NCBI GenBank assembly: GCA_020850475.1
Contig: JADZEO010000010.1
Coordinates: forward strand, 33,411 to 97,410
Direction: 5' to 3'
DNA from: Bdellovibrionales bacterium
GTDB lineage: Bacteria > Bdellovibrionota > Bdellovibrionia > Bdellovibrionales > UBA1609
DNA length: 64,000 nucleotides
The position numbers and the translations under genes were made by a program. Below are positions 9,274-59,837 of this stretch, one piece after another. The notes below the pieces were generated by a model, which did not search any database, was not told where the DNA came from, and saw nothing but the letters and a program-made list of their open reading frames with translations. Numbering within the stretch: the first letter of the stretch is position 1; each line of letters begins with the position of its first letter.

Positions 9274-11160
9274 ATGTGTGGGATCGTTGGATACCTTGGG
9301 CCGCGAGATCCTAAAGACGTATTGATTGGCGGACTCAAAAGTCTCGAGTACCGTGGCTATGACTCAGCCGGAATTGCCATTCTTCATCGAGGCGAATTCA
9401 AGCGGATTCGTGCCGAAGGCAAGCTGCTCAATCTCGAAAACAAAGTTAAGAACGAGGAGTTCGACGGACATTTGGGGATTGGCCACACCCGTTGGGCGAC
9501 GCACGGGCCCCCCAGCGAACGCAATGCTCATCCGCACTGCGTGGGCGGCGTGAGCCTGGTCCACAATGGAATTATCGAAAACTATTCTGAACTAAGAGAA
9601 GAGTTGGGTCGCGGGGGCGCGGTCTTTTCTTCAGATACGGACTCGGAACTGGTTGCTCACTTGCTCGCGAGTGAAACCAAAAGTGGTCGACCGCTCTTTG
9701 AGGCGGTGTTAGCGGTGTTGCCCCGTTTGCGAGGGGCCTACTCCATTCTGGCAGTATCCCAGGAAGAACCCAATGTCATGGTCGCCTTTAAAAATGGCCC
9801 GCCACTCGTCGTAGGCAAGGGCCATCATGAGGTTGTAATTGCGAGTGACGTTCAAGCCCTTTTGCCTTACACCAAAGATGTCGTTTATCTTCATGATCAC
9901 GAAGTCCTGGTGGTGAAGGGCGAAGAGTTTAAGTTGACAGCTCCCGACGGCAAGCCTCTACCGATCAAAACTGTTCATATTAACTGGAGTCCAGAACAAG
10001 CTGAAAAGTGTGGGTATCCGCACTTTATGCTCAAAGAGATTTTTGAACAACCGCGAGCAGTGGCCGCGGCAATGGCTCCGCACATTGATTTGGCCTTGAA
10101 GGCCGTGAAGCTTCAGCGAGTGGGGTTTGGCGCCAGTTCCGTCGAAGACCTGGCAACTTTGAAGGCGGACCAAGACTGGGCGGCCACTCAGCGAGTGCTG
10201 AGTGAAACTGAGCGCGTTTTTATTGTCGCTTGCGGCACCAGTTTTTATGCGGGCATGATTGGTGAATATTTACTTGAGCGACTCGCCGGAGTTCCCGTCG
10301 AAGTCGATATCGCCAGCGAATTTCGCTATCGTCATCCGGTGCTGCCCCCGAAGTCTTTGTTAATTGTCATTTCACAGAGCGGTGAAACAGCCGATACCTT
10401 GGCGGCCCTGCGGATGGCCAAAGGAAGCGGCACCAAGGTTTTGAGTATCTGCAATGTAAAGAGTTCTTCGATCGATCGCGAAGCCGATGGACATTTGTAT
10501 ATGAATGCGGGAGTTGAGATCGGCGTGGCGAGTACGAAAGCGCTCGTTGCAACCATCGCCTTGTTGAACATTTTAGCTTTGGCAATGGGACAAGAGCGCC
10601 GTCAGTTGAAAGCCGCAGAAGTGAAAGATTTTTTGGAAGCCCTGCAAGCGGCCCCCAGCCAGATGGAAACGGTGTTGGCTTATAATCAGTGGTTCTCAGA
10701 GGCGGCAGCGACGCTTAAAAAGCACAAGGGCTTTTTGTACATGGGCCGGGGTGTGAGCTTTCCCGTGGCGATGGAAGGTGCGCTGAAGCTTAAGGAGCTT
10801 GCGTACATGCATGCCGAGGGCTACGCCGCCGGAGAAATGAAGCACGGCCCACTGGCCCTTATCGATGACCGGATGGCCGTCGTGATGTTGGCTCCCCAAG
10901 ACGATCTCCAAGAAAAAACCATCAGCAACCTGGAAGAAGTCAAAGCCCGCGGTGGTAAAATTATCGCCGTCGGTACCGGAGAAGACCCCAAGTTGCGACG
11001 GCTCTCTGAGCATTATGTGGCTCTTCCCGAAGCCCCGTGGACGGTCAATCCTTTGCTGGAAGTCATTCCGGTGCAGCTACTCGCTTACCATGTCGCTTCA
11101 AGCCTGGGGCACGATGTGGATCAGCCTCGAAATCTCGCCAAATCCGTGACGGTCGAATAG
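9274..11160 (+). CDS. glmS: Glutamine--fructose-6-phosphate aminotransferase
   Basis: MCGIVGY N-terminal nucleophile, two SIS domains, canonical C-terminus ...NLAKSVTVE. Confidence 0.97.
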   Translation: MCGIVGYLGPRDPKDVLIGGLKSLEYRGYDSAGIAILHRGEFKRIRAEGKLLNLENKVKNEEFDGHLGIGHTRWATHGPPSERNAHPHCVGGVSLVHNGIIENYSELREELGRGGAVFSSDTDSELVAHLLASETKSGRPLFEAVLAVLPRLRGAYSILAVSQEEPNVMVAFKNGPPLVVGKGHHEVVIASDVQALLPYTKDVVYLHDHEVLVVKGEEFKLTAPDGKPLPIKTVHINWSPEQAEKCGYPHFMLKEIFEQPRAVAAAMAPHIDLALKAVKLQRVGFGASSVEDLATLKADQDWAATQRVLSETERVFIVACGTSFYAGMIGEYLLERLAGVPVEVDIASEFRYRHPVLPPKSLLIVISQSGETADTLAALRMAKGSGTKVLSICNVKSSSIDREADGHLYMNAGVEIGVASTKALVATIALLNILALAMGQERRQLKAAEVKDFLEALQAAPSQMETVLAYNQWFSEAAATLKKHKGFLYMGRGVSFPVAMEGALKLKELAYMHAEGYAAGEMKHGPLALIDDRMAVVMLAPQDDLQEKTISNLEEVKARGGKIIAVGTGEDPKLRRLSEHYVALPEAPWTVNPLLEVIPVQLLAYHVASSLGHDVDQPRNLAKSVTVE

Positions 11161-35571: not shown

Positions 35572-35603
35572 CAGGGGTCCTAAGGGACCCCTGGTGATTT
35601 GCG
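35572..35603 (+). terminator. Hairpin after flgE (9-bp perfect stem CAGGGGTCC/GGACCCCTG, loop TAAG, weak T tract)
   Basis: Read directly, 23 nt after the flgE stop. The tail GTGATTTG is only a weak U tract. Confidence 0.5.
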
Positions 35604-47756: not shown

Positions 47757-48302
47757 TTATCCCTTGGCTTGGTCCGCGTCCGACTCCAGCGTCCCGGCGC
47801 GCTGGGCCGCGCGGTCTTCAAGAAATTGCTGGGTCATGATGAGCAGGAGGAGCCCGACGCCTCCCACGATGCACATGTCAGCCACGTTAAACGCCGGCCA
47901 AGTGAAACGATGTTGATAGTGGAAGTCGAGAAAATCAATCACAAAGCCAAAGCGCAAGCGATCGATGTAGTTGCCCACGGCTCCACCGAAGACATTGCCA
48001 AGGGCAAAAACCTGCAGACGGTCGGTGTCTTTGACTCCCCAAAGAATCGACAGGATCACGATCATCGCCAAGGGAGGCATCGACAAAAAGAAAAGATTGC
48101 GGAAGGTTTCTCCGGCATCGCGAAAAATACCAAAGGCCGCACCCGTGTTTCGCACATAGGTAATGTTAAAGAAGTCATTAATGACGGTCAGCGACTCGCC
48201 CAAATAAAATTGGGTGTGGATATAGAGCTTGGTGGCTTGATCGAGAGTGACGATAGTTCCAGCGAGTGCGGCGAGAAGCAGATACTTCTTGCTGATCTTC
48301 AT
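47757..48302 (-). CDS. lspA: Lipoprotein signal peptidase II
   Basis: DQATK, NTGAAFG and FNVADMCIVGG motifs. The internal ATG at 48302 overlaps the ileS stop (ATGA). Conserved ileS-lspA synteny. Confidence 0.9.
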   Translation of the reverse strand: MKISKKYLLLAALAGTIVTLDQATKLYIHTQFYLGESLTVINDFFNITYVRNTGAAFGIFRDAGETFRNLFFLSMPPLAMIVILSILWGVKDTDRLQVFALGNVFGGAVGNYIDRLRFGFVIDFLDFHYQHRFTWPAFNVADMCIVGGVGLLLLIMTQQFLEDRAAQRAGTLESDADQAKG

Positions 48303-51064
48303 GCGAGGGCCTCTACGCACTTCGGGCAAACACCAGGGAAGCGCTGATCTTTGCCGGTTTCATCACTGTAATGCCAACAGCGCACACACTTGGTTCCGTC
48401 CGCGTGTTGGGCAACGATTTTTTCTTCACTTCCCTCTTGGATTTTTACCATGGAGACAATGAACAGTTGCCGCAAATCCTTTTGGTACTGCTGAAGTAGT
48501 TTAAAAACTGGGCCTTGGGCGGTGATGGTGACTTGAGCGTCAAGACTTGAGCCAATCACCTTATCGCGGCGCAGGTCCTCCAGAACCTTGGCCACCTTCG
48601 TGCGCATCTCCAGGAGGCTCGCAAAGCGCTCAACCAACCCCTCTTTGTTCCACTCCGGGTTCATTTGCGGAAACTCGCTTAAAAAGATGCTGTCATGTTT
48701 CTTACCGGGCAGGTAGGAGTAACCCTCTTCGGCCAAGAACGAAACAATTGGCGCCAGCATGGTCAAGGTTTTTTCAGTGAGCTCATAAAGCACGGTCTGC
48801 GCCGCGCGCCGAGCCCGGCCGTTGGCTTTCCAGGTGTAAAGTCGATCTTTCAAAATATCCAAGTAGGTTGCCGACAGATCAACGGTATAGAAATTATTGA
48901 GTGCGTGATAGACTTTGTAAAAATCGTAGTTGTCGTAGGCGTTGCGGGTCTTGCCGATGAGATCATTGAGTCTCAACAAGGCCCACTGGTCGAGTTCCGG
49001 CATATCTTTGAAAGCCACTCGATCAGTTTGCGGGTTGAAGTCATGTAAATTGCCCAGCAAGAAGCGCACGGTATTGCGAAAGCGGCGATAGGTTTCGGTG
49101 ATCCGCTGAAAAATTTCTTCGCCGATATTCACGTCTTGCCCATAGTCCTCGTAGGCCACCCACAACCGCAGGATCTCAGCACCCATGGTGTTGATGACTT
49201 GGCTGGGGTCAATGACGTTGCCTTGGGATTTGCTCATCTTGTAACCAGCGGCATCGGTCACAAATCCGTGGGTCACCAAGGCCTTGTAAGGAGTTTTTCC
49301 CACCGAGGCGATGGCCGACATTAGGCTGGTTTGAAACCAGCCGCGATGCTGGTCGCTGCCTTCAAGATAAATGTCCGCCGGGAAGGCGAGACCGTGACGT
49401 TTGCGTTGAACCGCGGCATGACAGACTCCGCTATCAAACCACACGTCGAGAATGTCTTGGCCTTTCTTAAAAGTTTTGCCGCCGCACTTGGCGCAGGATT
49501 TTCCGCCAACAAACTCACTCGCCTCGCGATTGTGATAGGCTTCGATTCCCTCACCGGTCGATTCCATGATGTCGGCAAGGCGCCGCATGATTTGACTGTC
49601 GGCTAAGGCTTCGCCGCACTCTTCACAATAAAAGACCGGAATGGGCACACCCCAAATGCGCTGGCGGCTTAAGCACCAGTCGGGTGAATTGGCGATCATC
49701 GAAGTCAAGCGTTGGACACCCCACCCGGGATAAAACTTAATGTCTTTTTCAGCCGCGGAAAGAGCCATCTTACGGACGGGGTACTTGTCATCATCCAATC
49801 GCACAAACCACTGGGGGGTCGCGCGAAAAATCAAAGGCGTCTTGGAGCGAGGATTGTGGGGATAGCTATGCACGATCTCGCGAAAGCCCAGCAAGTGGCC
49901 TGACTTTTTGAGGTCCTCAACGATCAGCTTGTTGGCGTCCCAAATTTTGATGCCTTTATACATCGGCACTTCTTCAGTAAAGCGTCCGGCAACGTCGACC
50001 GGGCTGTGCACAGGTAAGCCATACTTGAGTCCCACTTGATAATCTTCGAGACCATGCCCCGGAGCGGTGTGCACACAACCGGTTCCCGCATCGAGAGTCA
50101 CATGATCGCCGAGCATGACAAGGGAGTCGCGGCCCATAAACGGGTGATCGGCTTTAAGCCCTTCAAACTCGGTGCCCTTAAACGAACGAGTGGGTCGAAG
50201 AGTGAGCCCGGTCTCCTTTTCGACCATTTCTTTGAGATCTTCGGCGATGATGAGAAGCTCATGACCCGAGTCGAAGAGATTGTAAGTGTAATTGGCGTGA
50301 ACACAAATCCCGTAGTTGGCCGGCAGGGTCCAGGGAGTGGTCGTCCAAATAACCAAGGACACAGGCTTGTTCGGTGAGCCCACGCGCTTTAATTCTTTAG
50401 TGAGGGGGAACTTCACGTAAATCGAAGGACTCTTGTGGTCGTGGTATTCGACCTCGGCGGCGGCTAGGGCTGTTTGCAAAGCGGGACACCAATAAACTGG
50501 TTTTTCACCGCGATACAAAACTCCGTTGTCATGAACTTGCGCGAGCACCCGAATTTCTTCGGCTTCGTACTCTGGTTGAATGGTTAAATAGGGATTTTCC
50601 CAATCAGCGAGCACGCCCATGCGGACAAATTGTTCGCGCTGTTTGTCGACCCATGAAAGCGCTTCTTGGCGACATAGTTTGCGAACTTGGGCGGGTGAAG
50701 TCTCTTGCTTGTCTTTGCCCAGTTTCTTCGTGACATTGAGCTCGATGGGGAGTCCGTGACAATCCCAACCCGGAATAAAAGCAGCTTGGAATCCCGCCAT
50801 ATTACGGTACTTGACCACGATATCCTTGAGAATTTTATTGAGAGCGTGGCCCACATGCAGGTTGCCGTTAGCGTACGGAGGCCCGTCGGGCATCACATAG
50901 AGCGGGCGCCCCTGATTCTTCTTGAGGATTTGGCGATAGAGGTCGGCGGACTTCCACTGCGCAATTCGTTTAGGCTCCGCCTCGGGGAGATTCCCCTTCA
51001 TAGGAAAAGCCGTATTGGGAAGCTGAATTGTATCTTTATATTGGTCGGCGACTTTATCGGCCAC
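48299..51064 (-). CDS. ileS: Isoleucine--tRNA ligase
   Basis: HVGH (class I HIGH variant), KMSKS, C-terminal zinc-finger Cys pairs. 921 aa. Confidence 0.97.
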   Translation of the reverse strand: MADKVADQYKDTIQLPNTAFPMKGNLPEAEPKRIAQWKSADLYRQILKKNQGRPLYVMPDGPPYANGNLHVGHALNKILKDIVVKYRNMAGFQAAFIPGWDCHGLPIELNVTKKLGKDKQETSPAQVRKLCRQEALSWVDKQREQFVRMGVLADWENPYLTIQPEYEAEEIRVLAQVHDNGVLYRGEKPVYWCPALQTALAAAEVEYHDHKSPSIYVKFPLTKELKRVGSPNKPVSLVIWTTTPWTLPANYGICVHANYTYNLFDSGHELLIIAEDLKEMVEKETGLTLRPTRSFKGTEFEGLKADHPFMGRDSLVMLGDHVTLDAGTGCVHTAPGHGLEDYQVGLKYGLPVHSPVDVAGRFTEEVPMYKGIKIWDANKLIVEDLKKSGHLLGFREIVHSYPHNPRSKTPLIFRATPQWFVRLDDDKYPVRKMALSAAEKDIKFYPGWGVQRLTSMIANSPDWCLSRQRIWGVPIPVFYCEECGEALADSQIMRRLADIMESTGEGIEAYHNREASEFVGGKSCAKCGGKTFKKGQDILDVWFDSGVCHAAVQRKRHGLAFPADIYLEGSDQHRGWFQTSLMSAIASVGKTPYKALVTHGFVTDAAGYKMSKSQGNVIDPSQVINTMGAEILRLWVAYEDYGQDVNIGEEIFQRITETYRRFRNTVRFLLGNLHDFNPQTDRVAFKDMPELDQWALLRLNDLIGKTRNAYDNYDFYKVYHALNNFYTVDLSATYLDILKDRLYTWKANGRARRAAQTVLYELTEKTLTMLAPIVSFLAEEGYSYLPGKKHDSIFLSEFPQMNPEWNKEGLVERFASLLEMRTKVAKVLEDLRRDKVIGSSLDAQVTITAQGPVFKLLQQYQKDLRQLFIVSMVKIQEGSEEKIVAQHADGTKCVRCWHYSDETGKDQRFPGVCPKCVEALA

Positions 51065-51092
51065 GGGAGATCCTCACAGACAGAATCTCACT

Positions 51093-51121
51093 ATGCTAGG
51101 CCAGTGGCTGCACCTTGTCAA
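51093..51121 (-). promoter_or_regulatory. Sigma-70-type promoter candidate for ileS (TTGACA-N17-TAGCAT)
   Basis: Read on the minus strand 29-57 nt upstream of the GTG start at 51064. Confidence 0.45.
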
Positions 51122-51129
51122 CGGACGAA

Positions 51130-51642
51130 CTAAGGCGTGGGTAGAATCGTACGCAATCGATCATAGCCAAGGCTGATCAACATCCGCAGAGCTTCACCTT
51201 CAGAGCTCAAGTTCAGCCGAGACTGGACGCGACGAAGTGTTTCTAGGCTTCGAGCATCCAACGCAACACCAGAGACTGCCTTGGGCGGCGCCGTCATGGG
51301 CGGTGCTGTAACAGCCGGCGGTGGCGGCAAGCTGCGCTCATGGAGCAGGGGCTCGTCGCTTAAAAGATCGGCCGGGCGAGTCGGGTCCTCAAACTCTTTC
51401 ATGCCACGAGAAAGATCACGCAGGGTCTTCTTGAAATCTTGGGTGGAGCGCGGCGCATCTCCGCCATTATCATCGCGATAAACATCAACACCATGGCGAA
51501 CAGCATGAAGATACAAACTGACAAGTGCGTCGGGAGTCTTCGCGCGCTCTTTGATTTCGTTTGGCTGGTCGCGCAGCCAAAGGAAGGCCTGCGACAGGGT
51601 TTCGCGGGTATAAGCTTGCGGTGCGGTCTTGATATCAGCCAT
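51130..51642 (-). CDS. Hypothetical protein with Pro-rich linker
   Basis: Track ORF 51130..51681, with the internal Met MADIKTAPQAY preferred. No family recognised. Confidence 0.4.
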   Translation of the reverse strand: MADIKTAPQAYTRETLSQAFLWLRDQPNEIKERAKTPDALVSLYLHAVRHGVDVYRDDNGGDAPRSTQDFKKTLRDLSRGMKEFEDPTRPADLLSDEPLLHERSLPPPPAVTAPPMTAPPKAVSGVALDARSLETLRRVQSRLNLSSEGEALRMLISLGYDRLRTILPTP

Positions 51643-51792
51643 GGAGCCGAGCACACTAAGGCAAAATTTTGACCGTTTCAAACAGAAAAATCACCAAAGA
51701 CAAACAGCCCCGGATCCAAGCGTGCAAAAAATTTTTTATTGGTTCTTGACAAGGGCAGGACGCTTGCGTCCGCCCCCTCATGGTCTCATTGA

Positions 51793-53268
51793 TTACTCGG
51801 CGTAGTCCTTGGCGACGATTCCGTATTTTTCGATTTTGCGGAGCAAAGTCTTCTTCGGAATGTTCGCATGCAGCGCCGTCTGGTTGATTCGCCCTTTAAA
51901 GGTCTTCAACGCCTTAATGATAAATTCCTTTTCGAAAGCTTCTTTGTGGCGGTTAAAATCCAACGTGTCGCCAGAGATCGTGACGATTTCATCACCCTCG
52001 GAATCACCGTCCGCCATCTCCATTGAATCATCCAAACCGTCGTCGTCGGCGGCGGCGCCCAGGGCTTCGGCGGGCGTCGACTCGAGATCAACGCCAACGG
52101 CCTTGAGAAAACTCTCAGGAAAAGACTGAATGGTCAGCAGGTTGGACTCCTCAAGAATAAACGCGTGTTCGATCACATTTTCCAACTCGCGGATATTCCC
52201 CGGCCAGCTGTACCTCTTAAGCACCGCCAAGGCGGAAGGCGAAGTGCCAATAATTTTTTTGCCGTGCGCCTGATTAAACTTTTTGATGAAGGTATTGACT
52301 AGGTGGTCGATGTCTTCGCAACGCTCCGCCAAGGAGGGTAAAAAGATCGGCATGACGTTAAGGCGATAATAGAGATCTTCCCGGAAAGTACCCTTTTTGA
52401 TCATGTCTTCCAGGGGTCGATTGGTGGCGGCAATAATCCTGACGTTGGTTTCGATTTCACGGTTGGCGCCAACGGGGGTAAAAACCTTTTCCTGCAACAC
52501 GCGCAGGAGTTTGACCTGCATCAGCAGCGGCATATCGCCCACTTCGTCCAAAAAGATGGTTCCACCTTCGGCGTACTGAAATTTTCCGATTTTGCGTTGG
52601 TCGGCTCCGGTAAAGGCGCCCTTCTCGTGACCAAACAGTTCGCTTTCAAAGAGGTTCTCAGGGATGGCCGAACAATTCAGAGCCACAAATTTGCCGTCTT
52701 TGTTGGCGCTGTTATGGTGAATCGCCCGGGCCACCAATTCTTTACCAGTTCCCGAAGCACCGCGAATCAACACGGGCGTATCGACCTTCGAAAGGCGGTT
52801 GATGATGTTGTACACCTTCTGCATTTGCACGGTGTTGCCGATAATCTTGCGACCCGATTCATGTAAAATCGGCGCACTGGCGGCGACGTCAGAAATCAAT
52901 TTGTTCGCAACGATCGCTTTCTCAACCATTGCCACCAGCTCTTCGCCTTTGATGGGTTTAGAAACATAGTTGTAGGCGCCGTCGCGAACCGCTTGAACAG
53001 CGTCGTCGATTGTGGCGTAAGCCGTCATGATGATCACGATCATCGACGGGTCATGTTCCTTAATGGCCTTAAGGGCCTCGAGGCCCGACATTCGTGGCAT
53101 GTCGACATCTAAAAGGACGGCCGTGTAGCGATTGGCCTTTACCTTCTCGACGGCGTTGAGTCCGTCAAAGGCTTCGTCCACCTCAAACTTGCCGGCGGCC
53201 GCCAGCAGGGACGACTTGACTGAGAGTCGCAATCCTGAGTCGTCATCAACCACCAAGATTTTGAACAT
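51793..53268 (-). CDS. Sigma-54-dependent response regulator (receiver + AAA+ + HTH)
   Basis: MFKILVVDDD receiver, Walker A GASGTGKE, GAFTGA, acidic linker, C-terminal HTH. Its start is 12 nt after the kinase stop. Confidence 0.9.
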   Translation of the reverse strand: MFKILVVDDDSGLRLSVKSSLLAAAGKFEVDEAFDGLNAVEKVKANRYTAVLLDVDMPRMSGLEALKAIKEHDPSMIVIIMTAYATIDDAVQAVRDGAYNYVSKPIKGEELVAMVEKAIVANKLISDVAASAPILHESGRKIIGNTVQMQKVYNIINRLSKVDTPVLIRGASGTGKELVARAIHHNSANKDGKFVALNCSAIPENLFESELFGHEKGAFTGADQRKIGKFQYAEGGTIFLDEVGDMPLLMQVKLLRVLQEKVFTPVGANREIETNVRIIAATNRPLEDMIKKGTFREDLYYRLNVMPIFLPSLAERCEDIDHLVNTFIKKFNQAHGKKIIGTSPSALAVLKRYSWPGNIRELENVIEHAFILEESNLLTIQSFPESFLKAVGVDLESTPAEALGAAADDDGLDDSMEMADGDSEGDEIVTISGDTLDFNRHKEAFEKEFIIKALKTFKGRINQTALHANIPKKTLLRKIEKYGIVAKDYAE

Positions 53269-53280
53269 GATCCTACTCCT

Positions 53281-55191
53281 TTAATTCGACAATGACTGCA
53301 CTTCCGAATTTTCCAAACTCATTGGCAACTCGACGGTAAAGGTCGAGCCTTTGCCCAATTCACTTTCAACTGAAATACGCCCGCGGTGAAGCTCCACAAA
53401 ATACCGGGACAAATAGAGACCCAGTCCCGAGCCCTTGACGGGCGAATTCTTCACTTCGTTGCTGCGATAAAACTTTTCGAAGACGTGGCCCAATTCTTCG
53501 TCAGGGATGCCAATTCCCTGGTCCGCGACTTGAATGACGATGTGGCCGTTGATTTCCTCGGTGCTTACCAAGATCTTAGAATTCTCGGGGCTGTACTTGA
53601 TGGCATTCTCAATCAAATTAGTAAAGACTTGGCGAATGAGATCCTCGTCGAGCTTGATACTAAAGAGGGGCTCAAACTCAGGAATGACCTTGATACCTTT
53701 TTTAGCCGCCAAGTACTCGCTCTTTTTGATGACATCGGCCAGGAGAGTGTTGACATCGCGGCTATGGAGTTGAAGTTTGATTTCTTTGGACTCGATCCGA
53801 CCGAGGCTCAAGATCGAACCAATAAACTCCGACAGTTCCTCACTCGAGCGATTGATGGTCGCCAAGGCCTCTTTTTGTGAGGGGCTGAGTTGACTTGCAT
53901 CAGCCATCACCATGTCGGCCATTCCCTGGATGCGAGCCAAGGGCGTCTTGAGATCATGTGACATCATTCGCAAAAAATTGCTCTTAAGCTCTTCCACCTG
54001 AGTGAGAAGACGGTTGCGTTGGTAATACTCCCAACTGCGCCGATTTTCCATAATGAGTCGATAAGGAATAAAAAAGTAGTAACAAATAAAAATTGAAAGT
54101 AAGGGGTGGGCCATGCCAATCCAAAACCCCAACCCAGCAAAGGATACATAGGCGACCACGGCAAAGGAAATCATGGTCGCCATGAGGATCAAAAGTCCGC
54201 GCGCCGGCCTCACGGACAGCACCACATAAACGGTCAAAATCGAAATCAGCGAAGTGAGGAGGAGATCCAACCAATCCGGACCCTTGCGAGGCGCGGAGTT
54301 GAGAATCAAGGTGTCCGTCATATTGGCGTGCATCTCAAGCGTGCTCATGGCGACCACTTCGCGCGAATAAGGTGTCCGGATGTAGTCGGCAGAGGAGATA
54401 ACGGTGTCCGCACCAACAAACACCACTTTGTCGCGGAAGTCTTCGGCCTTAAAATTGCCGTTGAGAACCTGGGCGAAAGAAACCGGTCGATAAGTTCCCG
54501 ACGGTCGGAAGTCGATGAAGGCTTGATAGGTGCCCAGGAAGTCGAAGATGCCGCGAAAGTCCTGCATGGCGTGAAGATCATCATACCTCAGGCCGTTGTA
54601 GCTACTGGCGATGAGGGCATGAAGCGATGGGGCACCATGATATGAAAAAATCAAACGACGAGTCACATCGTCCTTAGCAAAAATCTTTTGGTCGGAAGTC
54701 TTGGGACCCGGCAAAACCGTCAGGCGATCGAGTGGCGCATCAAGTTTTAGTTGCTCTTCTTGCCCTTTGATCGGCAGGCGGTTCGCAGCGACGATAAATT
54801 GATTGAGCTGTAAGGCCGAGTCAGCAAACAACTTCATTTCTTCGAAGGTGCCGTCAATCTCGTTCGGGGGGTTGATGTAAACCACCGCGCGTGGACGAGC
54901 CGCCGCCAGGCGCCCCAAAAGGCGCACGTGATCCATGGCGTTTGGATCGCGTTTAAGTTCTTCCACTGTTTGCGGATCGATGGCGACCGTGACCACATGG
55001 CCCGAAGGCGGAGTCGGGCGTTTGCTCTGCATGCGCAGGTCGTAGGTCCACGACTCCAAATAGTCCAAATTAAACTGGGACAACAGCACGGCAATGCCGA
55101 GAGCAAGGGCGATCCGCAGGAGGCGAATCAGCCATTCTTTTTGTTGTGGTCCCAGTTTAATTAACTTCAAGCCTTTACCTCTAGTTCTCAA
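53281..55191 (-). CDS. Membrane sensor histidine kinase with CHASE2-like extracytoplasmic domain
   Basis: N-terminal TM segment, an outside domain of about 270 aa, a cluster of 3 TM helices, then H-box MSHDLKTPL and the HATPase N/G boxes (NLIENAIKYS, DQGIGI, GSGLGL). TTG start. Confidence 0.8.
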   Translation of the reverse strand: MRTRGKGLKLIKLGPQQKEWLIRLLRIALALGIAVLLSQFNLDYLESWTYDLRMQSKRPTPPSGHVVTVAIDPQTVEELKRDPNAMDHVRLLGRLAAARPRAVVYINPPNEIDGTFEEMKLFADSALQLNQFIVAANRLPIKGQEEQLKLDAPLDRLTVLPGPKTSDQKIFAKDDVTRRLIFSYHGAPSLHALIASSYNGLRYDDLHAMQDFRGIFDFLGTYQAFIDFRPSGTYRPVSFAQVLNGNFKAEDFRDKVVFVGADTVISSADYIRTPYSREVVAMSTLEMHANMTDTLILNSAPRKGPDWLDLLLTSLISILTVYVVLSVRPARGLLILMATMISFAVVAYVSFAGLGFWIGMAHPLLSIFICYYFFIPYRLIMENRRSWEYYQRNRLLTQVEELKSNFLRMMSHDLKTPLARIQGMADMVMADASQLSPSQKEALATINRSSEELSEFIGSILSLGRIESKEIKLQLHSRDVNTLLADVIKKSEYLAAKKGIKVIPEFEPLFSIKLDEDLIRQVFTNLIENAIKYSPENSKILVSTEEINGHIVIQVADQGIGIPDEELGHVFEKFYRSNEVKNSPVKGSGLGLYLSRYFVELHRGRISVESELGKGSTFTVELPMSLENSEVQSLSN

Positions 55192-55284
55192 GTTCCCAAC
55201 GGAATGCAGCTTGGATTAGGAACAGTTTTAATGGCCCCCGACTTATTGCTGCTGTCGGTGTTTGCCGGTTTTTCTTTGGCGACG

Positions 55285-56625
55285 TCACCAGCCTTTACGT
55301 TTAATTTCTTGATGTGCTTCATTTGACCCCCTCGGTTGCCGAGATTTGGTTAACTCCATTGCTAGATACTGAATACTCAAAGCGGCTAAGCCGCGCATTC
55401 GCTCACAAAAATATTCGTCCCGCACGTGGGACTGGCCCGTTTTAGTGCGGAACACGGAGGCGCAACCGCCTCCGCAGAGATTTCGCGCCCAACAATTCTG
55501 ACAGTCATGGCGAACCGTCAGCGGCTGCGCCCACTGTTGGCGGCGGGTCTCATCAAGTTGATCAACTTCGCCTAATTTCTCTTTTGAGTCACCTGAAAAC
55601 CAGTTGCAGGCATAGAGTCCGCCATTGGTGTCGGAATGAATAAAACTCTTTCCAGCGCCGCAAAAATTTTCCACCGGAACACCACTGTCGAGTGCGGTGA
55701 TGAGGCGCCCAAAGGGCTGAATTCGGCTCAAAGCAGTGAAACCCTCTTGGCGATAAACCTGGTCCGCCAGCCGCGCCATTTCACGTAAGTAGAGCGGCGA
55801 GGTTTGGGCGTCGTCGGCGCCGGCGGCAAAGCCGAAGTTATAGAGATCAAAATCAAAGGTGCGCAAAAAAACATAAGTCCCAATCACATCCAGGTGGTGA
55901 GCGCCCATCACGGCATTGGCGTGGAGAGACTGAAGTCCCTCGCGCACGCGGAGCAGCTCCTTAAGCCCGCGCAATACTTCAGGGGCCGAGGCGCCTCCTC
56001 CGCGCGTTGGGCGATTTTGATTTTGCACTTCCGGCGGTCCATCCAGACTCAAGGTAACTTGAAAGCCAAAGTCCGCTAGATAATCGGCGAGGGGCGCATT
56101 CAGCCGAGTGCCATTGGTAATCAAGGAGAACTGTATGGTCACACCCTGTTGGCCGGCAAGCTCACGGGCAAATTGTGAGAGATGTTGTAATTCGGCGGGA
56201 AAGAGCAGCGGTTCGCCGCCGACAAACTGAAGGCGAAAAACTTCGCCCTTGGTCAGGCGTCCAAGAAAAAAGCGCAATTGCTTTTCGACCGTGGCGAGAT
56301 CAGCGCGGGGACGGGTGGAGCCGTAGCTGCCATCGCCACCGGCGCCACAGTAAGAGCAGCGCAAATCACACACTTGCGACAGGTTGAGAGAAAACTCTCG
56401 GACGGTGTGGGGTTGAGGGCGAGCACTGCCGGCCGTTTGCGGAAGTTCCTCGTTCCACTTGCGCAACTCCAAATGGGCCGTTGAATCCCACCCTGAGGTC
56501 GAATTCATTGCCTCCCAAGCTTCGCTATCGAGCTCGGCGAGTTCCAGGTTGTTAGCATTAAAGCCCGTCACCTGACCGGTGGGTCCACGAAAGGCAACGA
56601 TCTCTTGATAACGACGTAAGTCCAC
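55285..56625 (-). CDS. Radical SAM enzyme with C-terminal SPASM-type auxiliary cluster domain (peptide/protein-modifying maturase family)
   Basis: CDLRCSYC (CX3CX2C). GGEPLL. C-terminal Cys cluster CGAG...C(N)W...CQNCWARNLCGGGCASV...C. An N-terminal extension of about 85 aa precedes the core. GTG start with AGGGGA upstream. Confidence 0.8.
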   Translation of the reverse strand: MDLRRYQEIVAFRGPTGQVTGFNANNLELAELDSEAWEAMNSTSGWDSTAHLELRKWNEELPQTAGSARPQPHTVREFSLNLSQVCDLRCSYCGAGGDGSYGSTRPRADLATVEKQLRFFLGRLTKGEVFRLQFVGGEPLLFPAELQHLSQFARELAGQQGVTIQFSLITNGTRLNAPLADYLADFGFQVTLSLDGPPEVQNQNRPTRGGGASAPEVLRGLKELLRVREGLQSLHANAVMGAHHLDVIGTYVFLRTFDFDLYNFGFAAGADDAQTSPLYLREMARLADQVYRQEGFTALSRIQPFGRLITALDSGVPVENFCGAGKSFIHSDTNGGLYACNWFSGDSKEKLGEVDQLDETRRQQWAQPLTVRHDCQNCWARNLCGGGCASVFRTKTGQSHVRDEYFCERMRGLAALSIQYLAMELTKSRQPRGSNEAHQEIKRKGW

Positions 56626-56653
56626 AAGTTTCCCCTAGTTCCGAGGGATCATG

Positions 56654-56669
56654 AGCAATAACTTTGCCA
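56654..56669 (-). promoter_or_regulatory. Sigma-54 promoter TGGCAA-N5-TTGCT
   Basis: Read on the minus strand. GG/GC are in exact -24/-12 register, 28 nt upstream of the radical SAM GTG. Confidence 0.6.
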
Positions 56670-56729
56670 GGGTTTGGAGAGCGGTCTCAGACGGTCAAAT
56701 CGAATTGGCGGGTGCTTGGTCGCAAAACC

Positions 56730-56764
56730 GGCGCTGGTGAAGGGTTTCACCGGCGCCATTTTTT
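56730..56764. terminator. 12-bp GC-rich hairpin with T6 on the plus side and T4 on the minus side
   Basis: GGCGCTGGTGAA-GGGT-TTCACCGGCGCC, read directly, 46 nt downstream of the lipoprotein stop (minus strand). It separates that gene from the radical SAM promoter. Confidence 0.55.
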
Positions 56765-56802
56765 CCAATCGGAGGGACAAAAAGTGTCAAAATGACACCA
56801 TC

Positions 56803-57684
56803 TTAAGTGGGCGGAACGGGTGCAGTTTCGGCTTTATTGAAGATCAAAATAAAGCTGCGAAACACGCCGCCTTGGGTGGGGCGCTCAATCAGCATGCGAA
56901 TCTCATTGGCGTTGCTGGCGCGCAGATGAAGTTTAGTGCCCTTGGTTGCACCATCGCGAGTGGTGGTAAAGAACTCGCCCGAGACGTCAAGCAAGGTACT
57001 GTCGAGAAGGCTCAAAGGTTGAACGGCAGTTGAGGGCGGAGTGTCGTGACTGAGGACTTCGCCCACGTCACCACTCGGGATGTTCATTTCAAAAAAGATC
57101 GGCTGATTAACCTTAATGCCGGTTTCACCTTCTTTGACAATCTCCAGTGCGAGGGTAGCGGCGTTGGTCAGGGGACTTGAGCCGCCATGGCTGCGGTTGT
57201 TGGAAAGAAAGCTTTCCTTTTCAATTCCAATTTGATTGCCCGTGGTTTTAACTTTTGCCGCCAATATAGCGCGGTAGCTGTTGTTGGACTGCACAACCGT
57301 CGCAATCACTTGGCTCAAGCGATAGGTACCTTCCGGAATGTCCTTCAAGGTCTTTTTTGGAATGTTGGGACCAAAGGCACTGGCAATGACTTCATCGATT
57401 TGCTTGTTGGCAGCCTCATTAGCGCCCGCCAAGTTGGTGAGCGGACTCGGAGCCCCCGCGCCTGGTGCGGCGGCAGGACCTGCGGCCGGAGCGCTAGGTG
57501 CGCCGGGTTTGGCTGGAGTTGCGCCCGGGGCGGGTTTGGCGCCAGCAGTACCGGGTTTCTGATTAAGGCCGCGCCCTTTGCGAACGCGCTCTTTCTTATC
57601 ATTAGATGATGGGGCACAACCAACGAGAGCCGTGGTCGCCACAAAGGAAACGAGAATAATGGCGATCGCCAAAAGGTTTTTCAT
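56803..57684 (-). CDS. Hypothetical lipoprotein with Ala/Pro/Gly-rich linker
   Basis: Signal peptide plus lipobox (ALVGC), followed by (AP/GA)-rich low complexity and then a globular domain. No family recognised. Confidence 0.55.
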   Translation of the reverse strand: MKNLLAIAIILVSFVATTALVGCAPSSNDKKERVRKGRGLNQKPGTAGAKPAPGATPAKPGAPSAPAAGPAAAPGAGAPSPLTNLAGANEAANKQIDEVIASAFGPNIPKKTLKDIPEGTYRLSQVIATVVQSNNSYRAILAAKVKTTGNQIGIEKESFLSNNRSHGGSSPLTNAATLALEIVKEGETGIKVNQPIFFEMNIPSGDVGEVLSHDTPPSTAVQPLSLLDSTLLDVSGEFFTTTRDGATKGTKLHLRASNANEIRMLIERPTQGGVFRSFILIFNKAETAPVPPT

Positions 57685-57710
57685 TTAATACCTCCGCTTC
57701 TGGTTGGTCT

Positions 57711-57726
57711 TACAAAGGCAGTGCCG
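57711..57726 (-). promoter_or_regulatory. Weak sigma-54-like element cGGCAC-N5-TTGTA
   Basis: Read on the minus strand about 25 nt upstream of the GGAGG/ATG of the lipoprotein gene. The -12 dinucleotide is GT, not GC. Confidence 0.25.
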
Positions 57727-57765
57727 CTCGGGACTCCAGTTGGTTGAACGTGGGACCCCGTTTAT

Positions 57766-57791
57766 TTCGATTTGAGGAAACCCAAATCGAA
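57766..57791. promoter_or_regulatory. Perfect 9-bp inverted repeat TTCGATTTG-N8-CAAATCGAA in a divergent intergenic region (operator-like)
   Basis: Read directly, between the lipoprotein gene (minus) and the acyltransferase gene (plus). Confidence 0.4.
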
Positions 57792-57917
57792 TAGGCCTCA
57801 GACAGTGGTCCGCAAATTGGCAACAAGCCTTTGGTTGGACCGGAATTAAGTGGGCACATTGTCTGGCTTTGCCGAGGGAGGGCAGCAGTGGTAAATTGTG
57901 ATTCTGCCCTCAAGTGA

Positions 57918-59837
57918 ATGATCGAAGTGGGGTTTGTTTTGTCCCTCAGCCATCCGTCCTATCGCGCGGACATTGATGGATTGCGAGCGATTGCCGTCTT
58001 GGCGGTGGTGGTGTTTCATACCTTTCCGGCCTGGTTACCCGGTGGGTTTGTCGGAGTGGATGTATTCTTTGTTATCTCCGGCTTTCTGATCTCGACAATC
58101 TTGTTCTCGAGTTTAGAGAATAACAGTTTTAGTTTTTTCGAATTCTATTCCCGGCGAATAAGACGCATTTTTCCGGCGCTCGCAATAGTTTTAATTTTTT
58201 GTCTATTGGCTGGGTGGTGGGTGGCCTTGCCCGGTGAATACCAACAATTGGCCAAGCACACGATCGCGGGTACGGCATTTGTCGCCAATTTTGTCTTTTG
58301 GCAGGAGACCGGATATTTTGATAATTCAGGCGACACAAAACCTCTCCTGCACCTGTGGAGTCTCGGAATCGAGGAGCAATTTTATATTGTCTGGCCACTC
58401 CTTCTCTGGGTGGGGTGGCGATTCAAGGTGAGGCCTGTCTTTGTCACTGTCGGTCTGGGCGTAACCTCTTTCTTATTCAACTTGCATGGTATCAAGACTG
58501 ATGTTGGAGCGACTTTCTACTCTCCTCATACTCGAATTTGGGAATTGCTAATGGGTGGGTTCGTGGCTTGGCTGGGACTCGATCCTCGCTGGTCGGCGAT
58601 GCCTGAGCGACTGACGCCGAAAGTTCGTCAACTTTGGCAAAACAGCTCATCAGTTATCGGAATGAGTTTAATTTTATACTCCACCCTCCAGTATTCCCGA
58701 TTTTCGAAATATCCTGGCACTTTGGCACTCCTTCCAACTTTTGGGACGGCCTTGATTATCGCTGGAGGCGGACCGAGTTGGCTCGGCCGCTACCTTCTCT
58801 CGAATCGCGTTTTGGTGTGGTTTGGGCTGATCAGTTACCCCCTTTACTTGTGGCACTGGCCATTGATTTCGTTTACTCGCTTCTTTGGGACCGAAGCCCC
58901 TGGCCCGTTCGTCAAGGCCGGCCTCGTGCTGCTGGCAACGCTCTTAGCCTGGATCACGTACAGGTTCATCGAGAGGCCTCTCCGCAAGGGAGTGGTGACC
59001 AGCAAGGTAACGGGCTTGCTGATTCTCACCCTAGTCAGTGTCGCCTTGATTGGTGTGATTATCTTTCGGGCAGGAGGTTTCGTTAATCGCTTTGCCTTCA
59101 ATGTCTCGTTAGATGAGCAGGCAATTGAACGGGAGCGAACCCGATACTTAACAAGCCGTCCTACGCGCGGCTTTGAAGGCAAACGAGTGAAGGTCCTGTT
59201 TTACGGAGACAGTCACGCCGCCGATTTGTACAAATCATTCTCGAATGATCCCGAAATTGGTTTGAATGTTTTAGGCATGGGACATCATTGCGTCGCTTTA
59301 GGTGCGGGAGCAGAACTTGGTTTCGAATCATTTGCGCCTCAATGCGCAGACAGTCTCAAATATTTGCTCAGCTCCAGAGAGTTGTCAGAAGCTAACGTGT
59401 TTGTTTACGGGTCGTTCTGGCGGAGAGATCTGGAATCGAGTGCCGCCGAAGCCGCCTATGAGCGAACGTGGGCTGAAATTCGCCGTGTTAACCCGACGAT
59501 CAAGATTGTTGTCTTTGGGCCCAAGCCGGTTTTAGGGATCGAGTGGCGGACAATCAATTCCATCGTACGCGGCCAAACCTCCAAAGCCCGACTCAATAGC
59601 TATCTCAATGAGGTGAAGGCGTTTCGCGAGCACGATAATCAGTATGCTAAGGCAATAGCCTCCAAGTTTGGGCTGGCTTACGTCGATGTGAGTGAGATCT
59701 ATTGCCGTGGTGGTTGTGTCTTTTATTCGGATAACAAGTTTGCCTACTTCGACAACAACCATTGGACCGAGTTCGGGGCGAAGGTGTTTTTCGACAAGTT
59801 TCGTCAGACAGAGGAATACCAAAATCTATTTCAATAG
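57918..59837 (+). CDS. Membrane O-acyltransferase (AT3 family) fused to a C-terminal SGNH-like domain (OafA/YrhL type)
   Basis: YRADIDGLRAIAVLAVVVFH start motif, about 10 TM helices, then a soluble tail of about 270 aa (VLFYGDSHA). Confidence 0.85.
   Translation: MIEVGFVLSLSHPSYRADIDGLRAIAVLAVVVFHTFPAWLPGGFVGVDVFFVISGFLISTILFSSLENNSFSFFEFYSRRIRRIFPALAIVLIFCLLAGWWVALPGEYQQLAKHTIAGTAFVANFVFWQETGYFDNSGDTKPLLHLWSLGIEEQFYIVWPLLLWVGWRFKVRPVFVTVGLGVTSFLFNLHGIKTDVGATFYSPHTRIWELLMGGFVAWLGLDPRWSAMPERLTPKVRQLWQNSSSVIGMSLILYSTLQYSRFSKYPGTLALLPTFGTALIIAGGGPSWLGRYLLSNRVLVWFGLISYPLYLWHWPLISFTRFFGTEAPGPFVKAGLVLLATLLAWITYRFIERPLRKGVVTSKVTGLLILTLVSVALIGVIIFRAGGFVNRFAFNVSLDEQAIERERTRYLTSRPTRGFEGKRVKVLFYGDSHAADLYKSFSNDPEIGLNVLGMGHHCVALGAGAELGFESFAPQCADSLKYLLSSRELSEANVFVYGSFWRRDLESSAAEAAYERTWAEIRRVNPTIKIVVFGPKPVLGIEWRTINSIVRGQTSKARLNSYLNEVKAFREHDNQYAKAIASKFGLAYVDVSEIYCRGGCVFYSDNKFAYFDNNHWTEFGAKVFFDKFRQTEEYQNLFQ

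Follow-up and report, generated by a model that had tools for sequence, protein, structure and literature searches.

Which substrate does a radical SAM/SPASM enzyme modify when its gene stands in one unit with those for a membrane-bound sensor kinase and a sigma-54 activator, and what might these proteins do together? The question is posed by a locus in a 64-kb stretch of DNA (the window) from a member of the Bdellovibrionales, a predatory bacterium that provides a Gram-negative setting for the cassette. On the minus strand, the order from 5' to 3' is a radical SAM/SPASM enzyme gene, a 44-codon peptide gene, a gene for a CHASE2-domain kinase and a gene for a GAFTGA-containing sigma-54 activator, all co-oriented with short gaps, and the unit is real. 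The original prediction had described a 93-nt gap after the enzyme gene and no substrate nearby. The gap is filled by a conserved 44-codon open reading frame, and the claim that no substrate lies nearby was therefore wrong: a conserved precursor peptide gene follows the enzyme immediately. The locus is best read as a RiPP precursor with its maturase, coupled to a two-component system. As had been anticipated for the enzyme, kinase and activator, the combination appears undescribed: we found no curated family or paper that covers it. The earlier observation is thus partly confirmed, and its interpretation partly supported.

The enzyme gene (55285–56625, minus strand; GTG start at 56625) encodes a 446-aa protein that matches PF04055 (E 5e-14), in agreement with the earlier annotation. 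Its CX3CX2C motif (C86/C90/C93) falls within CDLRCSYC, seven auxiliary-cluster cysteines follow in the C-terminal region (C322, C340, C375, C378, C384, C388 and C407), and all ten are invariant among 28 family members. The closest curated NCBIfam families, PapB (165 bits), nif11-type (160 bits), QhpD (140 bits) and SCIFF (113 bits), are all formers of Cys thioethers. These scores are far below every curated subfamily cut-off (PapB 340, SCIFF 425, QhpD 453). The top PDB match of an AlphaFold2 model of the enzyme (pLDDT 87.7) is CteB (5WGG; E 4e-23, TM 0.78, 455 aligned columns), and a profile search against PDB sequences also recovers CteB (3.5e-46). The alignment of the model with CteB runs from end to end, and residues 1 to ~75 form a peptide-recognition (RRE-like) domain, the role that had been guessed for this extension. 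C322/C340/C388 correspond to CteB C344/C362/C413, the three-Cys auxiliary cluster AC1, and C375/C378/C384/C407 to CteB C400/C403/C409/C432 of AC2. AC1 is the auxiliary cluster that binds the substrate Cys, and the seven cysteines lie at CteB spacing (PMC10177961).

Downstream, the putative precursor gene (55188–55322, minus strand) shares 38 nt with the 3' end of the enzyme gene and encodes a 44-aa peptide, MKHIKKLNVKAGDVAKEKPANTDSSNKSGAIKTVPNPSCIPLGT, made up of a KHIKKL leader, a variable linker rich in Lys, Ser, Thr and Gly, and a single-Cys core, PNPSCIPLGT. A Shine-Dalgarno sequence, GAGGGGG, is positioned 4 nt upstream of the ATG. Databases label the peptide just 'hypothetical'. Could this be a chance reading frame, with the enzyme's substrate encoded elsewhere? 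The frame is short, runs across the 3' end of the enzyme gene and is skipped by many gene callers (among loci L001–L009 it is annotated in some only). However, an automatic rule finds a homologous ORF at the same position, after the enzyme gene and before the kinase gene, in at least 81 of the 90 loci from Bdellovibrionales, and most of the remaining loci show the peptide by eye. The same leader and C-x-P core recur even though the enzymes are only 28–71% identical to that of the window. Across the alignment, C-x-P keeps its C and its P without exception, and conservation of H-I-K is 90% or more. The peptides range from 27 to 81 aa and share a KHIKK leader and a lone Cys within C-[I/V]-P. Exactly one Cys is present in 72 of 77 distinct peptides, and an SD-like site precedes 69 of the 77. 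Synonymous changes outnumber nonsynonymous ones in close peptide pairs (14:2, 12:4 and 7:1), and between MKHIKKLNVKAGDVAKEKPANTDSSNKSGAIKTVPNPSCIPLGT and the L001 peptide seven of the eight changed codons in the conserved ends are synonymous. Conservation, SD sites and the synonymous excess together effectively refute a chance frame, to which we assign a negligible probability, and the peptide and radical SAM enzyme are very likely a real precursor-maturase pair.

What might the enzyme do to this peptide? It is CteB-like. In common with CteB, Tte1186 and PapB (SCIFF and ranthipeptide maturases), it has an N-terminal recognition domain, a radical SAM barrel and a SPASM domain, the CX3CX2C motif and seven auxiliary cysteines at identical spacing, including the three-Cys AC1, and an adjacent precursor gene; Tte1186a receives a single Cys cross-link, as we propose for the window peptide. 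Nevertheless, the window enzyme is only ~20% identical to these proteins, and its precursor is unrelated to theirs, having a KHIKK leader and C-[I/V]-P in place of CX3D repeats or a six-Cys pattern. Its family, unlike theirs, occurs only in Bdellovibrionales, where a CHASE2 kinase and a sigma-54 activator accompany the enzyme in nearly all loci. We favor thioether formation on the peptide as the probable reaction; with scores so far below all curated cut-offs, the chemistry may differ from that of known thioether formers. QhpD, which acts with QhpC in maturation of quinohemoprotein amine dehydrogenase, is a related radical SAM/SPASM Cys-thioether former, but its substrate is a dehydrogenase subunit and not a 27–81-aa peptide, and qhpA, qhpB and qhpC are absent from the window locus. 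The nearest outgroup homolog of the window enzyme sits in a qhp operon that itself adjoins a kinase and a sigma-54 activator.

Alternatively, the enzyme could act like an anSME and convert the Cys of C-x-P-x-R/G to formylglycine (or a thioaldehyde), giving a reactive peptide aldehyde and no thioether. With its C-[I/V]-P-x-[G/R/K] pattern the core is similar to the C/S-x-P/A-x-R motif of sulfatases, C-I-P-V-R is a frequent ending among Bdellovibrio peptides, and no residue that could accept a cross-link is found at a fixed distance from the Cys across the peptides. Moreover, anSME shares the SPASM fold and is the second-best match to the enzyme by both structure and sequence. Those 370-aa matches, however, leave the recognition domain uncovered, and the score against TIGR03942 (87 bits, cut-off 349) is lower than those for thioether formers. 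In anSMEs eight auxiliary cysteines fully ligate both clusters, whereas the window enzyme has seven, and no sulfatase is encoded near it. We consider such anSME-like chemistry improbable.

The two genes that follow encode a two-component system of the kind originally proposed. The kinase ORF (53281–55191, minus strand) matches CHASE2 (PF05226, E 3e-29), HisKA (PF00512, E 3e-16) and HATPase_c (PF02518, E 1e-29), arranged from the N terminus as a transmembrane helix, CHASE2 in the periplasm (~residues 33–315), a transmembrane block, HisKA with the H-box SHDLKTP, and HATPase_c. Translation probably starts at a TTG at 55170, preceded by AGAGGT, rather than at 55191, so that the peptide stop either overlaps the kinase ORF or falls 17 nt before the likely kinase start. 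The activator gene (51793–53268, minus strand) begins 12 nt after the kinase gene and encodes an NtrC-family response regulator with a receiver domain (D54; PF00072, E 9e-28), an AAA+ domain containing GAFTGA (PF00158, E 1e-72) and a Fis-type HTH_8 domain (PF02954, E 3e-06); it reaches no NCBIfam equivalog cut-off, and across loci it is 63–88% identical. The enzyme/kinase/activator order is kept in nearly all of the ~90 Bdellovibrionales loci, wherever the locus is long enough to show linkage, with the kinase following the enzyme gene and, where identified, the peptide gene. None of the findings that the original prediction named as counting against it (loss of this linkage in orthologs, clean assignment to a known subfamily whose substrate is encoded elsewhere, or a sigma-70 start independent of rpoN) was made. 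The genes ileS-lspA likewise stay nearby across loci, so the synteny could in part reflect general conservation of gene order within one order.

Upstream of the enzyme gene lies the sigma-54 type -24/-12 element that had been predicted, TGGCAAAGTTATTGCT (56654–56669, minus strand). Its spacing is GG-N10-GC, and the GTG start codon follows 45 nt downstream. Although it is the sole TGGYA-N6-TTGCW match in the window, a single match in 64 kb is not significant alone (shuffles predict 0.47, and one or more turn up in 33 of 100), and the element carries weight because of its position and conservation. Elements that score 9 or more of 11 occur in the 200 nt preceding the enzyme gene in 63 of 86 related loci, compared with 46 of 1780 background windows (2.6%). 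Transcription is predicted to start near 56643, ~18 nt before the start codon, and the four genes likely form a sigma-54-dependent operon. Further upstream, directly past the stop codon of a lipoprotein gene and ~115–130 nt from the -24 element, is an inverted repeat, GTGTCA-N3-TGACAC (TGGTGTCATTTTGACACT; 56783–56800, minus strand), the top-scoring site for its motif across the window. Related repeats above 12 bits are present in 38 of 71 distinct upstream regions and 9 of 534 background windows, and in two-fold cross-validation 31–50% of held-out loci pass, compared with ~1.5% of background. The repeat, detectable ~95–130 nt upstream in roughly half of the lineages only, could be the binding site of the activator. 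Between this candidate site and the promoter, the expected hairpin was found at 56730–56757, with a 12-bp stem, 8 of its 12 pairs G-C, and a 4-nt loop; it has a minus-strand tail, GGTTTTGCG, and looks terminator-like for the lipoprotein gene. The plus-strand tail is T-rich as well.

These features suggest how the cassette might work. The precursor would bind the N-terminal recognition domain through its KHIKK leader, and Cys39 would coordinate the open iron site of AC1, the arrangement known from CteB, PapB and Tte1186. A 5'-deoxyadenosyl radical would then take a hydrogen from a nearby carbon, closing one thioether ring in the C-terminal C-I-P-L-G-T. Thr44 of MKHIKKLNVKAGDVAKEKPANTDSSNKSGAIKTVPNPSCIPLGT stands at +5 from Cys39, and the cross-link of CteA reportedly joins Cys32 and Thr37 at the same spacing. 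Factors unlinked to the locus would remove the leader and export the peptide, the periplasmic CHASE2 domain would sense the small cyclic product, and the kinase would phosphorylate the activator. By binding the inverted repeat, the activator would fire the -24/-12 promoter of its own operon, creating positive feedback. Of the self-amplifying circuit originally envisaged, the feedback fits the repeat seen in about half of the lineages, while the supposition of an enzyme without an adjacent substrate gives way to a peptide that adjoins it. As a whole, an undescribed, self-activating peptide-signaling cassette of the RiPP autoinducer type is our best explanation, one that we put at slightly under an even chance; that the peptide is the ligand of the kinase we propose tentatively.

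Divergence across the cassette forms a gradient expected of a co-diversifying ligand system. Averaged over pairs, identity is lowest in the recognition domain (35%), followed by CHASE2 (40%), where the kinase diverges most, the enzyme core (47%), the cytoplasmic kinase region (66%) and AAA+ (82%). Partial Mantel tests controlled for AAA+ distance, which overstate significance on related sequences, show a double dissociation. Divergence of the peptide core goes with that of CHASE2 (r 0.43, p 0.0005), but its link to the recognition domain, which is just as divergent, is not significant (r 0.07). For the leader, the correlation is higher with the recognition domain (r 0.26) than with CHASE2 (r 0.12). 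Within kinases the sensor domain generally evolves fastest, a caution on the CHASE2 correlation. Might the peptide instead stay inside the cell and tune the kinase or activator, as MgrB tunes PhoQ? Neither an exporter nor a leader peptidase is encoded in the conserved neighborhood, no secretion signal was seen there, and the peptide lacks a hydrophobic signal sequence, points that also weigh against our best explanation. The peptide stop overlaps the kinase ORF or precedes the likely kinase start by 17 nt, and core distance correlates with the kinase transmembrane block (partial r 0.21). The strongest link is nonetheless to the periplasmic domain, the peptide has no membrane segment, and core distance is uncorrelated with the cytoplasmic domains of the kinase (partial r 0.01) and with the receiver domain (-0.01), making an intracellular modulator a poor prospect.

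A stronger competitor, though still unlikely, is that the peptide is an output and not a signal: CHASE2 would sense an unrelated external cue (such as prey or envelope), the activator would turn the operon on, and the modified peptide would be an antimicrobial or prey-directed factor, a metal-binding or redox-active peptide, or cofactor-like. Co-transcription with the two-component system would then be mere autoregulation, which is common in such systems. The promoter, synteny and peptide evidence serve this account equally, as does a cluster with no exporter or peptidase gene, and we know of no ligand for any CHASE2 domain. Against it, the peptide core follows CHASE2 and not the enzyme once CHASE2 is controlled (r 0.09, not significant), one small ring on a ~10-residue peptide is atypical for an antibiotic, and the order maturase, precursor, histidine kinase, response regulator is the signature of autoinducing cassettes such as agrBDCA of staphylococci and comQXPA of Bacillus.

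A signaling role would place the cassette beside agrBDCA and comQXPA in further respects. Each of those is a single autoregulated unit, as we infer for the window operon, and the likeness extends to a variable maturase, peptide and sensor domain next to a conserved kinase core and regulator; comQXPA also has no dedicated exporter gene. No component is homologous, however: the place of AgrB or ComQ is taken by a radical SAM enzyme, that of the polytopic sensor by CHASE2, and that of the LytTR or NarL-type regulator by a sigma-54 AAA+ activator. The host here is Gram-negative, unlike theirs, and peptide signaling in it is a proposal. Radical SAM-modified small peptides have been tied to cell-cell signaling before: streptide and related shp/rgg-controlled streptococcal clusters are linked to quorum sensing (PMC9389541), and SCIFF ranthipeptides are reported in clostridial quorum sensing (Chen et al., 2020, cited in PMC13635244). 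In those systems a separate signal controls the RiPP or its role is indirect, whereas the window operon unites RiPP genes and sensor in a Gram-negative predator under sigma-54.

Finally, a conserved 170–183-aa protein of unassigned function, which matches nothing in Pfam, NCBIfam or PDB, is encoded between the activator and ileS (51130–51681, minus strand). In most loci tblastn places it beyond the activator gene, in some of them with inserted genes in between, and this frequent neighbor may be a candidate member of the system.

Positions 56800 to 51793 of the window, on the minus strand, form one co-oriented unit in both the ORF listing and the raw sequence, and a Pfam scan supported three of its genes, encoding an enzyme, a kinase and a regulator. 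The enzyme gene (55285-56625, minus strand) begins at a GTG with AGGGGA just 5' of it and encodes a 446-aa protein that matches PF04055 at 53 bits (53.2 against a cut-off of 29.5), placing it in the radical SAM superfamily. The kinase (53281-55191, minus strand) is a CHASE2 sensor histidine kinase, with all three domains above their Pfam gathering scores: CHASE2 (E 3e-29; 102.8 versus 26.3 bits), HisKA (59.8 versus 26.9) and HATPase_c (103.5 versus 26.4). The regulator (51793-53268, minus strand) contains REC, Sigma54_activat (PF00158, E 1e-72), AAA lid and HTH_8 (PF02954, E 3e-06) domains, and GAFTGA is present in its translation; both the AAA+ sigma-54 interaction domain with this motif and a DNA-binding HTH were thus found in the activator. 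These three genes, together with the -24/-12 element and the hairpin of the original prediction, were all recovered at the positions it had assigned, as judged from ORFs, Pfam matches and sequence.

The 93-nt gap that had been described between enzyme and kinase is in fact occupied by a gene of 44 codons, which runs on the minus strand from an ATG at 55322 to its end at 55188, has GAGGGGG upstream of the ATG, and encodes MKHIKKLNVKAGDVAKEKPANTDSSNKSGAIKTVPNPSCIPLGT. A small frame lies between the enzyme and kinase genes in all nine of the first related loci fetched, and the nine peptides keep an N-terminal K-H-I-K-K-[V/I/L] and a C-terminal G-C-[I/V]-P, with enzymes that are merely 31-71% identical. 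Of 90 loci, 81 yielded the precursor under an automatic rule; two of the remainder are cut off by contig ends, and most of the others have recognisable variants. Among 77 distinct peptides, 69 are preceded by a Shine-Dalgarno-like site and 72 have exactly one cysteine. When 28 peptides were aligned, the Cys and Pro of C-x-P proved invariant, with conservation of H-I-K at 90% or more. Peptide lengths range from 27 to 81 aa, with a low-complexity linker of very different lengths. Synonymous to nonsynonymous changes stood at 14:2, 12:4 and 7:1 in close peptide pairs, and between the window and the related locus L001 seven of eight changed codons in the conserved peptide ends are synonymous. The 44-codon ORF is a protein-coding gene under purifying selection.

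The peptides have the layout of a RiPP precursor, with a conserved leader, a variable linker and a short conserved core. The features that define a precursor-maturase pair are present, namely a small conserved ORF adjoining the maturase gene, a conserved leader, a modifiable core and selection at the protein level, and we consider it very likely that the pair is genuine. The enzyme had been portrayed as an orphan without a substrate, a view that the conserved precursor gene right beside it overturns. Seven variants of the peptide matched no NCBIfam family even with E values up to 10 allowed, and a protein search with the peptide alignment returned only unnamed or 'hypothetical' entries; the latter include entries in the cultured Bdellovibrio bacteriovorus strains HD100 (CAE78161.1), Tiberius (Bdt_3279) and 109J.

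The peptide ends vary by lineage. Precursors of the Bdellovibrio genus end exactly in C-[I/V/L/M]-P-[I/V]-R (for example L005 at 9306-9398, L018, L020, L022, L025, L052, L055 and L063), and in other clades a tail follows C-I-P-x-G. In the sub-clade of L015, L030, L059 and L075, Pro directly follows Cys (G-C-P-E-L, P-C-P-E-R, A-C-P-V-L) in place of C-x-P, and these cores may form a different ring or use a different acceptor. Locus L011 carries two tandem precursors between enzyme and kinase at about 7232-7560, with cores …VGLGCVPVGIR and …VGLECAPLGAS. Lipobox-like cores (G-L-A-C, G-I-S-C, G-L-G-C) occur in L023, L032, L034, L045, L008 and L009, and lspA and lgt are usually found a few genes from the cluster (window lspA, 47757-48329). 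We considered whether the L-A/S-G/A-C cores and the downstream lspA and lgt mark the peptides as lipoproteins, and rejected this reading: a hydrophobic signal segment is absent from the peptides, and the NPSC of the window peptide does not fit the pattern.

Turning to the enzyme, C86-X3-C90-X2-C93 and seven C-terminal cysteines (C322, C340, C375, C378, C384, C388 and C407) are invariant in a 28-member alignment. Every NCBIfam score fell far below its curated cut-off, the best being PapB (NF047865, 165.1 bits versus 340), nif11-type (TIGR04064, 159.9 versus 518.7), QhpD (TIGR03906, 139.8 versus 453) and SCIFF (TIGR03974, 112.8 versus 425). By these scores, the nearest families are peptide maturases that form Cys thioethers. 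QhpD itself was rejected as an assignment given its score and the lack of qhp genes here, unlike in the outgroup locus L090. A profile search of PDB sequences gave CteB at 3.5e-46 and the anaerobic sulfatase-maturating enzyme anSME at 1e-24. An AlphaFold2 model (pLDDT 87.7) likewise had CteB as its best structural match (E 4e-23, TM 0.78), and the Foldseek alignment of the two spans 455 columns over the full length, N-terminal domain included. Residues 1-59 of the model, where an N-terminal RiPP recognition element (RRE) would lie, fold into four strands and two helices; the Pfam scan of the enzyme gave no PqqD match.

In CteB, auxiliary cluster AC1 has three protein ligands, C344, C362 and C413, and AC2 is held by C400, C403, C409 and C432 (PMC10177961). 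For PapB and Tte1186 the same paper shows that an iron, most likely in AC1, is bound by the Cys or SeCys of the substrate (PMC10177961). The spacing in the window enzyme is identical to that of CteB C344/C362/C400/C403/C409/C413/C432, and its seven-Cys pattern, C-x17-C ... C-x2-C-x5-C-x3-C ... x18-C, is that of the CteB/PapB/Tte1186 type. Since the spacings are the same as in CteB, we infer a CteB-type mechanism, in which the single Cys of the precursor would ligate AC1 and become the sulfur donor of one thioether. The enzyme is thus predicted to work like CteB, Tte1186 and PapB, yet falls in no curated family, and on balance we favor thioether chemistry. No acceptor residue stands out across the clades. 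Peptides of the window clade carry a C-terminal Thr at +5 from the Cys, the spacing of the CteA cross-link; clades outside it end at C-I-P-V-R or C-K-P-S.

Assignment as an anaerobic sulfatase-maturating enzyme was rejected: the TIGR03942 score is 87.1 bits versus 349.45, the auxiliary cysteines number seven rather than eight, and no sulfatase lies in the neighborhood. An anSME-like oxidation of the peptide to formylglycine is nevertheless kept as a minor alternative because the core resembles the sulfatase motif C-x-P-x-R, which precursors of the Bdellovibrio genus match at their ends. Arguing against such an oxidation are the seven-Cys pattern and a putative recognition domain (enzyme residues 1 to about 75).

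A scan of the genome collection with the single enzyme sequence confirmed no relative. Repeated with the family alignment and one genome per species, it gave 80 loci, all labelled Bdellovibrionales or Bdellovibrionota save one bin whose label is evidently wrong. At E below 1e-55 and with full-length coverage, the family of the enzyme is limited to Bdellovibrionota, with a sharp drop in score beyond. In a tblastn survey with the window proteins, enzyme, kinase and activator occur in the same order and on the same strand in essentially every sufficiently long locus, bearing out the linkage of orthologs to a kinase and enhancer-binding protein. Among the exceptions, L060 has no activator match and two loci are rearranged: L077 has kinase and activator both upstream on the opposite strand, and L082 has the activator alone upstream on the opposite strand with the kinase still downstream. 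In both, the peptide still comes after the enzyme, which is itself preceded by a -24/-12-like element (AGGCA…TTGCA). The closest outgroup enzymes have markedly different surroundings: one, a QhpD, belongs to an operon for quinohemoprotein amine dehydrogenase, and another, a maturase with a PqqD domain, has a small ORF of its own. The CHASE2 linkage is therefore specific to the window's enzyme family.

Genes upstream of the unit vary among loci; 3' of the activator, tblastn usually finds a 170-183-aa protein and then often ileS-lspA-lgt. In the window this protein (51130-51681, minus strand; 183 aa) has no Pfam, NCBIfam or PDB match. In the majority of related loci it comes after the activator, in some cases with other genes inserted between them. 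Its N-terminal part is helical and is joined by a Pro-rich linker to a C-terminal segment that, by eye, resembles a ribbon-helix-helix. The window's upstream neighbors are a lipoprotein (56803-57684, minus strand), with an L-V-G-C signal peptide and a long Ala/Pro/Gly-rich linker, which is found in the closest relatives only, and an AT3-SGNH acyltransferase (57918-59837, plus strand). Neither is kept beside the unit in other lineages.

The -24/-12 element, TGGCAAAGTTATTGCT, lies at 56654-56669 on the minus strand, 45 nt before the GTG start. It is the one match to TGGYA-N6-TTGCW in the whole 64-kb window, which by itself is not significant, as shuffles expect 0.47 in 64 kb. Conservation is more telling: of 86 loci, 63 have a GG-N10-GC element scoring at least 9 of 11 in the 200 nt before the enzyme gene, compared with 46 of 1780 background windows. 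With a -24 TGGCA and -12 TTGC conserved in orthologous loci, as expected of a sigma-54 promoter, sigma-54 dependence of the operon is likely. The notion of a conserved sigma-54 unit with probable autoregulation holds up, with synteny and promoter both conserved across related loci.

When the loci were aligned on the -24/-12 element, another conserved feature emerged some 95-130 nt upstream of it. The window's copy is the inverted repeat TGGTGTCATTTTGACACT at 56783-56800, a perfect GTGTCA-N3-TGACAC and the best-scoring motif site in the whole window; its Bdellovibrio equivalent is TAGTTTCCTTTTGCACC. In two-fold cross-validation, 31-50% of held-out loci scored above 12 bits, against about 1.5% of background, and the repeat is visible in only about half of the lineages. 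Its distance and symmetry would fit an enhancer for a Fis-HTH activator, making it a candidate site for the operon's own activator. Between repeat and promoter lies a 12-bp hairpin (56730-56757), most simply the terminator of the upstream lipoprotein gene. T-runs follow it on both strands, so it could be a bidirectional terminator; no plus-strand gene ends there. Moderate scores with the repeat matrix were also given by a perfect GC-rich palindrome, GGGGTCCCTTAGGACCCC, at 35573-35591 and a related sequence near 20248, which probably have no relation to the motif and represent hairpins or repeat elements. Scanned against Rfam, the region 51000-57900 had one chance match only, below threshold.

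We then asked whether the peptide might be the signal for the kinase. Divergence among the related loci is graded: mean pairwise identity is lowest in the putative recognition domain (35%), CHASE2 (40%) and the enzyme core (47%), and higher in the kinase transmembrane block (61%), the cytoplasmic part of the kinase (66%), the receiver (68%) and the AAA+ domain (82%). In partial Mantel tests controlling for AAA+ distance, the peptide core tracked CHASE2 (r 0.43, p 0.0005), but neither the equally divergent recognition domain (r 0.07) nor the cytoplasmic kinase part (r 0.01), and its association with the enzyme core vanished once CHASE2 was controlled (r 0.09). The leader, conversely, correlated with the recognition domain (r 0.26) above CHASE2 (r 0.12). 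A model of leader-maturase and core-receptor contacts predicts such a double dissociation, which is suggestive only, since Mantel tests leave shared ancestry in. That the peptide is the CHASE2 ligand is a possibility we take seriously while holding it short of probable. In the main rival reading, which we rate somewhat lower, the kinase responds to another cue and the peptide is an output. Counting against the signal model, the cluster has no linked exporter or leader peptidase gene in the related neighborhoods and no signal sequence, and the upstream repeat is seen in only about half of the lineages.

The agrBDCA and comQXPA cassettes place a maturase, precursor, kinase and regulator under one autoregulated promoter. 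The window unit shares this order and no homologous component, the likeness being one of architecture only: its Pfam and NCBIfam matches are to radical SAM, CHASE2 and NtrC-type families, with no homology to AgrB/AgrD/AgrC/AgrA or ComQ/ComX/ComP/ComA. We tentatively propose, at rather less than even confidence, that Bdellovibrionales share an order-wide self-activating system in which a ribosomal peptide cyclised by a radical SAM enzyme is the ligand of a CHASE2 sensor kinase. RiPP radical SAM pairs and autoinducing cassettes are already known kinds; the window unit joins the two with CHASE2 sensing and control by sigma-54, and does so in Gram-negative predators. A full-text literature search on Bdellovibrio, radical SAM, CHASE2, sigma-54 and RiPP systems found no description of the cluster.

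We know of no established ligand for CHASE2, a widespread extracellular sensor domain, and a genetically hard-wired peptide partner is a direct, testable candidate; if it proves true, this would be, as far as we know, the first ligand class for CHASE2, in a sigma-54-driven peptide quorum- or self-sensing circuit of Gram-negative predatory bacteria. Peptide autoinducers are viewed mainly as a Gram-positive trait, and an agr/comQXPA-like cassette in such predators would broaden that view and raise the prospect of self-sensing during predation. With its KHIKK leader and single Cys in C-[I/V]-P, the precursor family, like the enzyme, lies outside all curated subfamilies, and their product may contain a small thioether ring that has not been described. 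Because the cultured B. bacteriovorus strains HD100, Tiberius and 109J carry the system, it is open to genetic work. In the outgroup locus L090 (1-7994), a dCache kinase and a sigma-54 response regulator come before the QhpD operon; here, independently, two-component control through sigma-54 adjoins a SPASM enzyme that forms thioethers.
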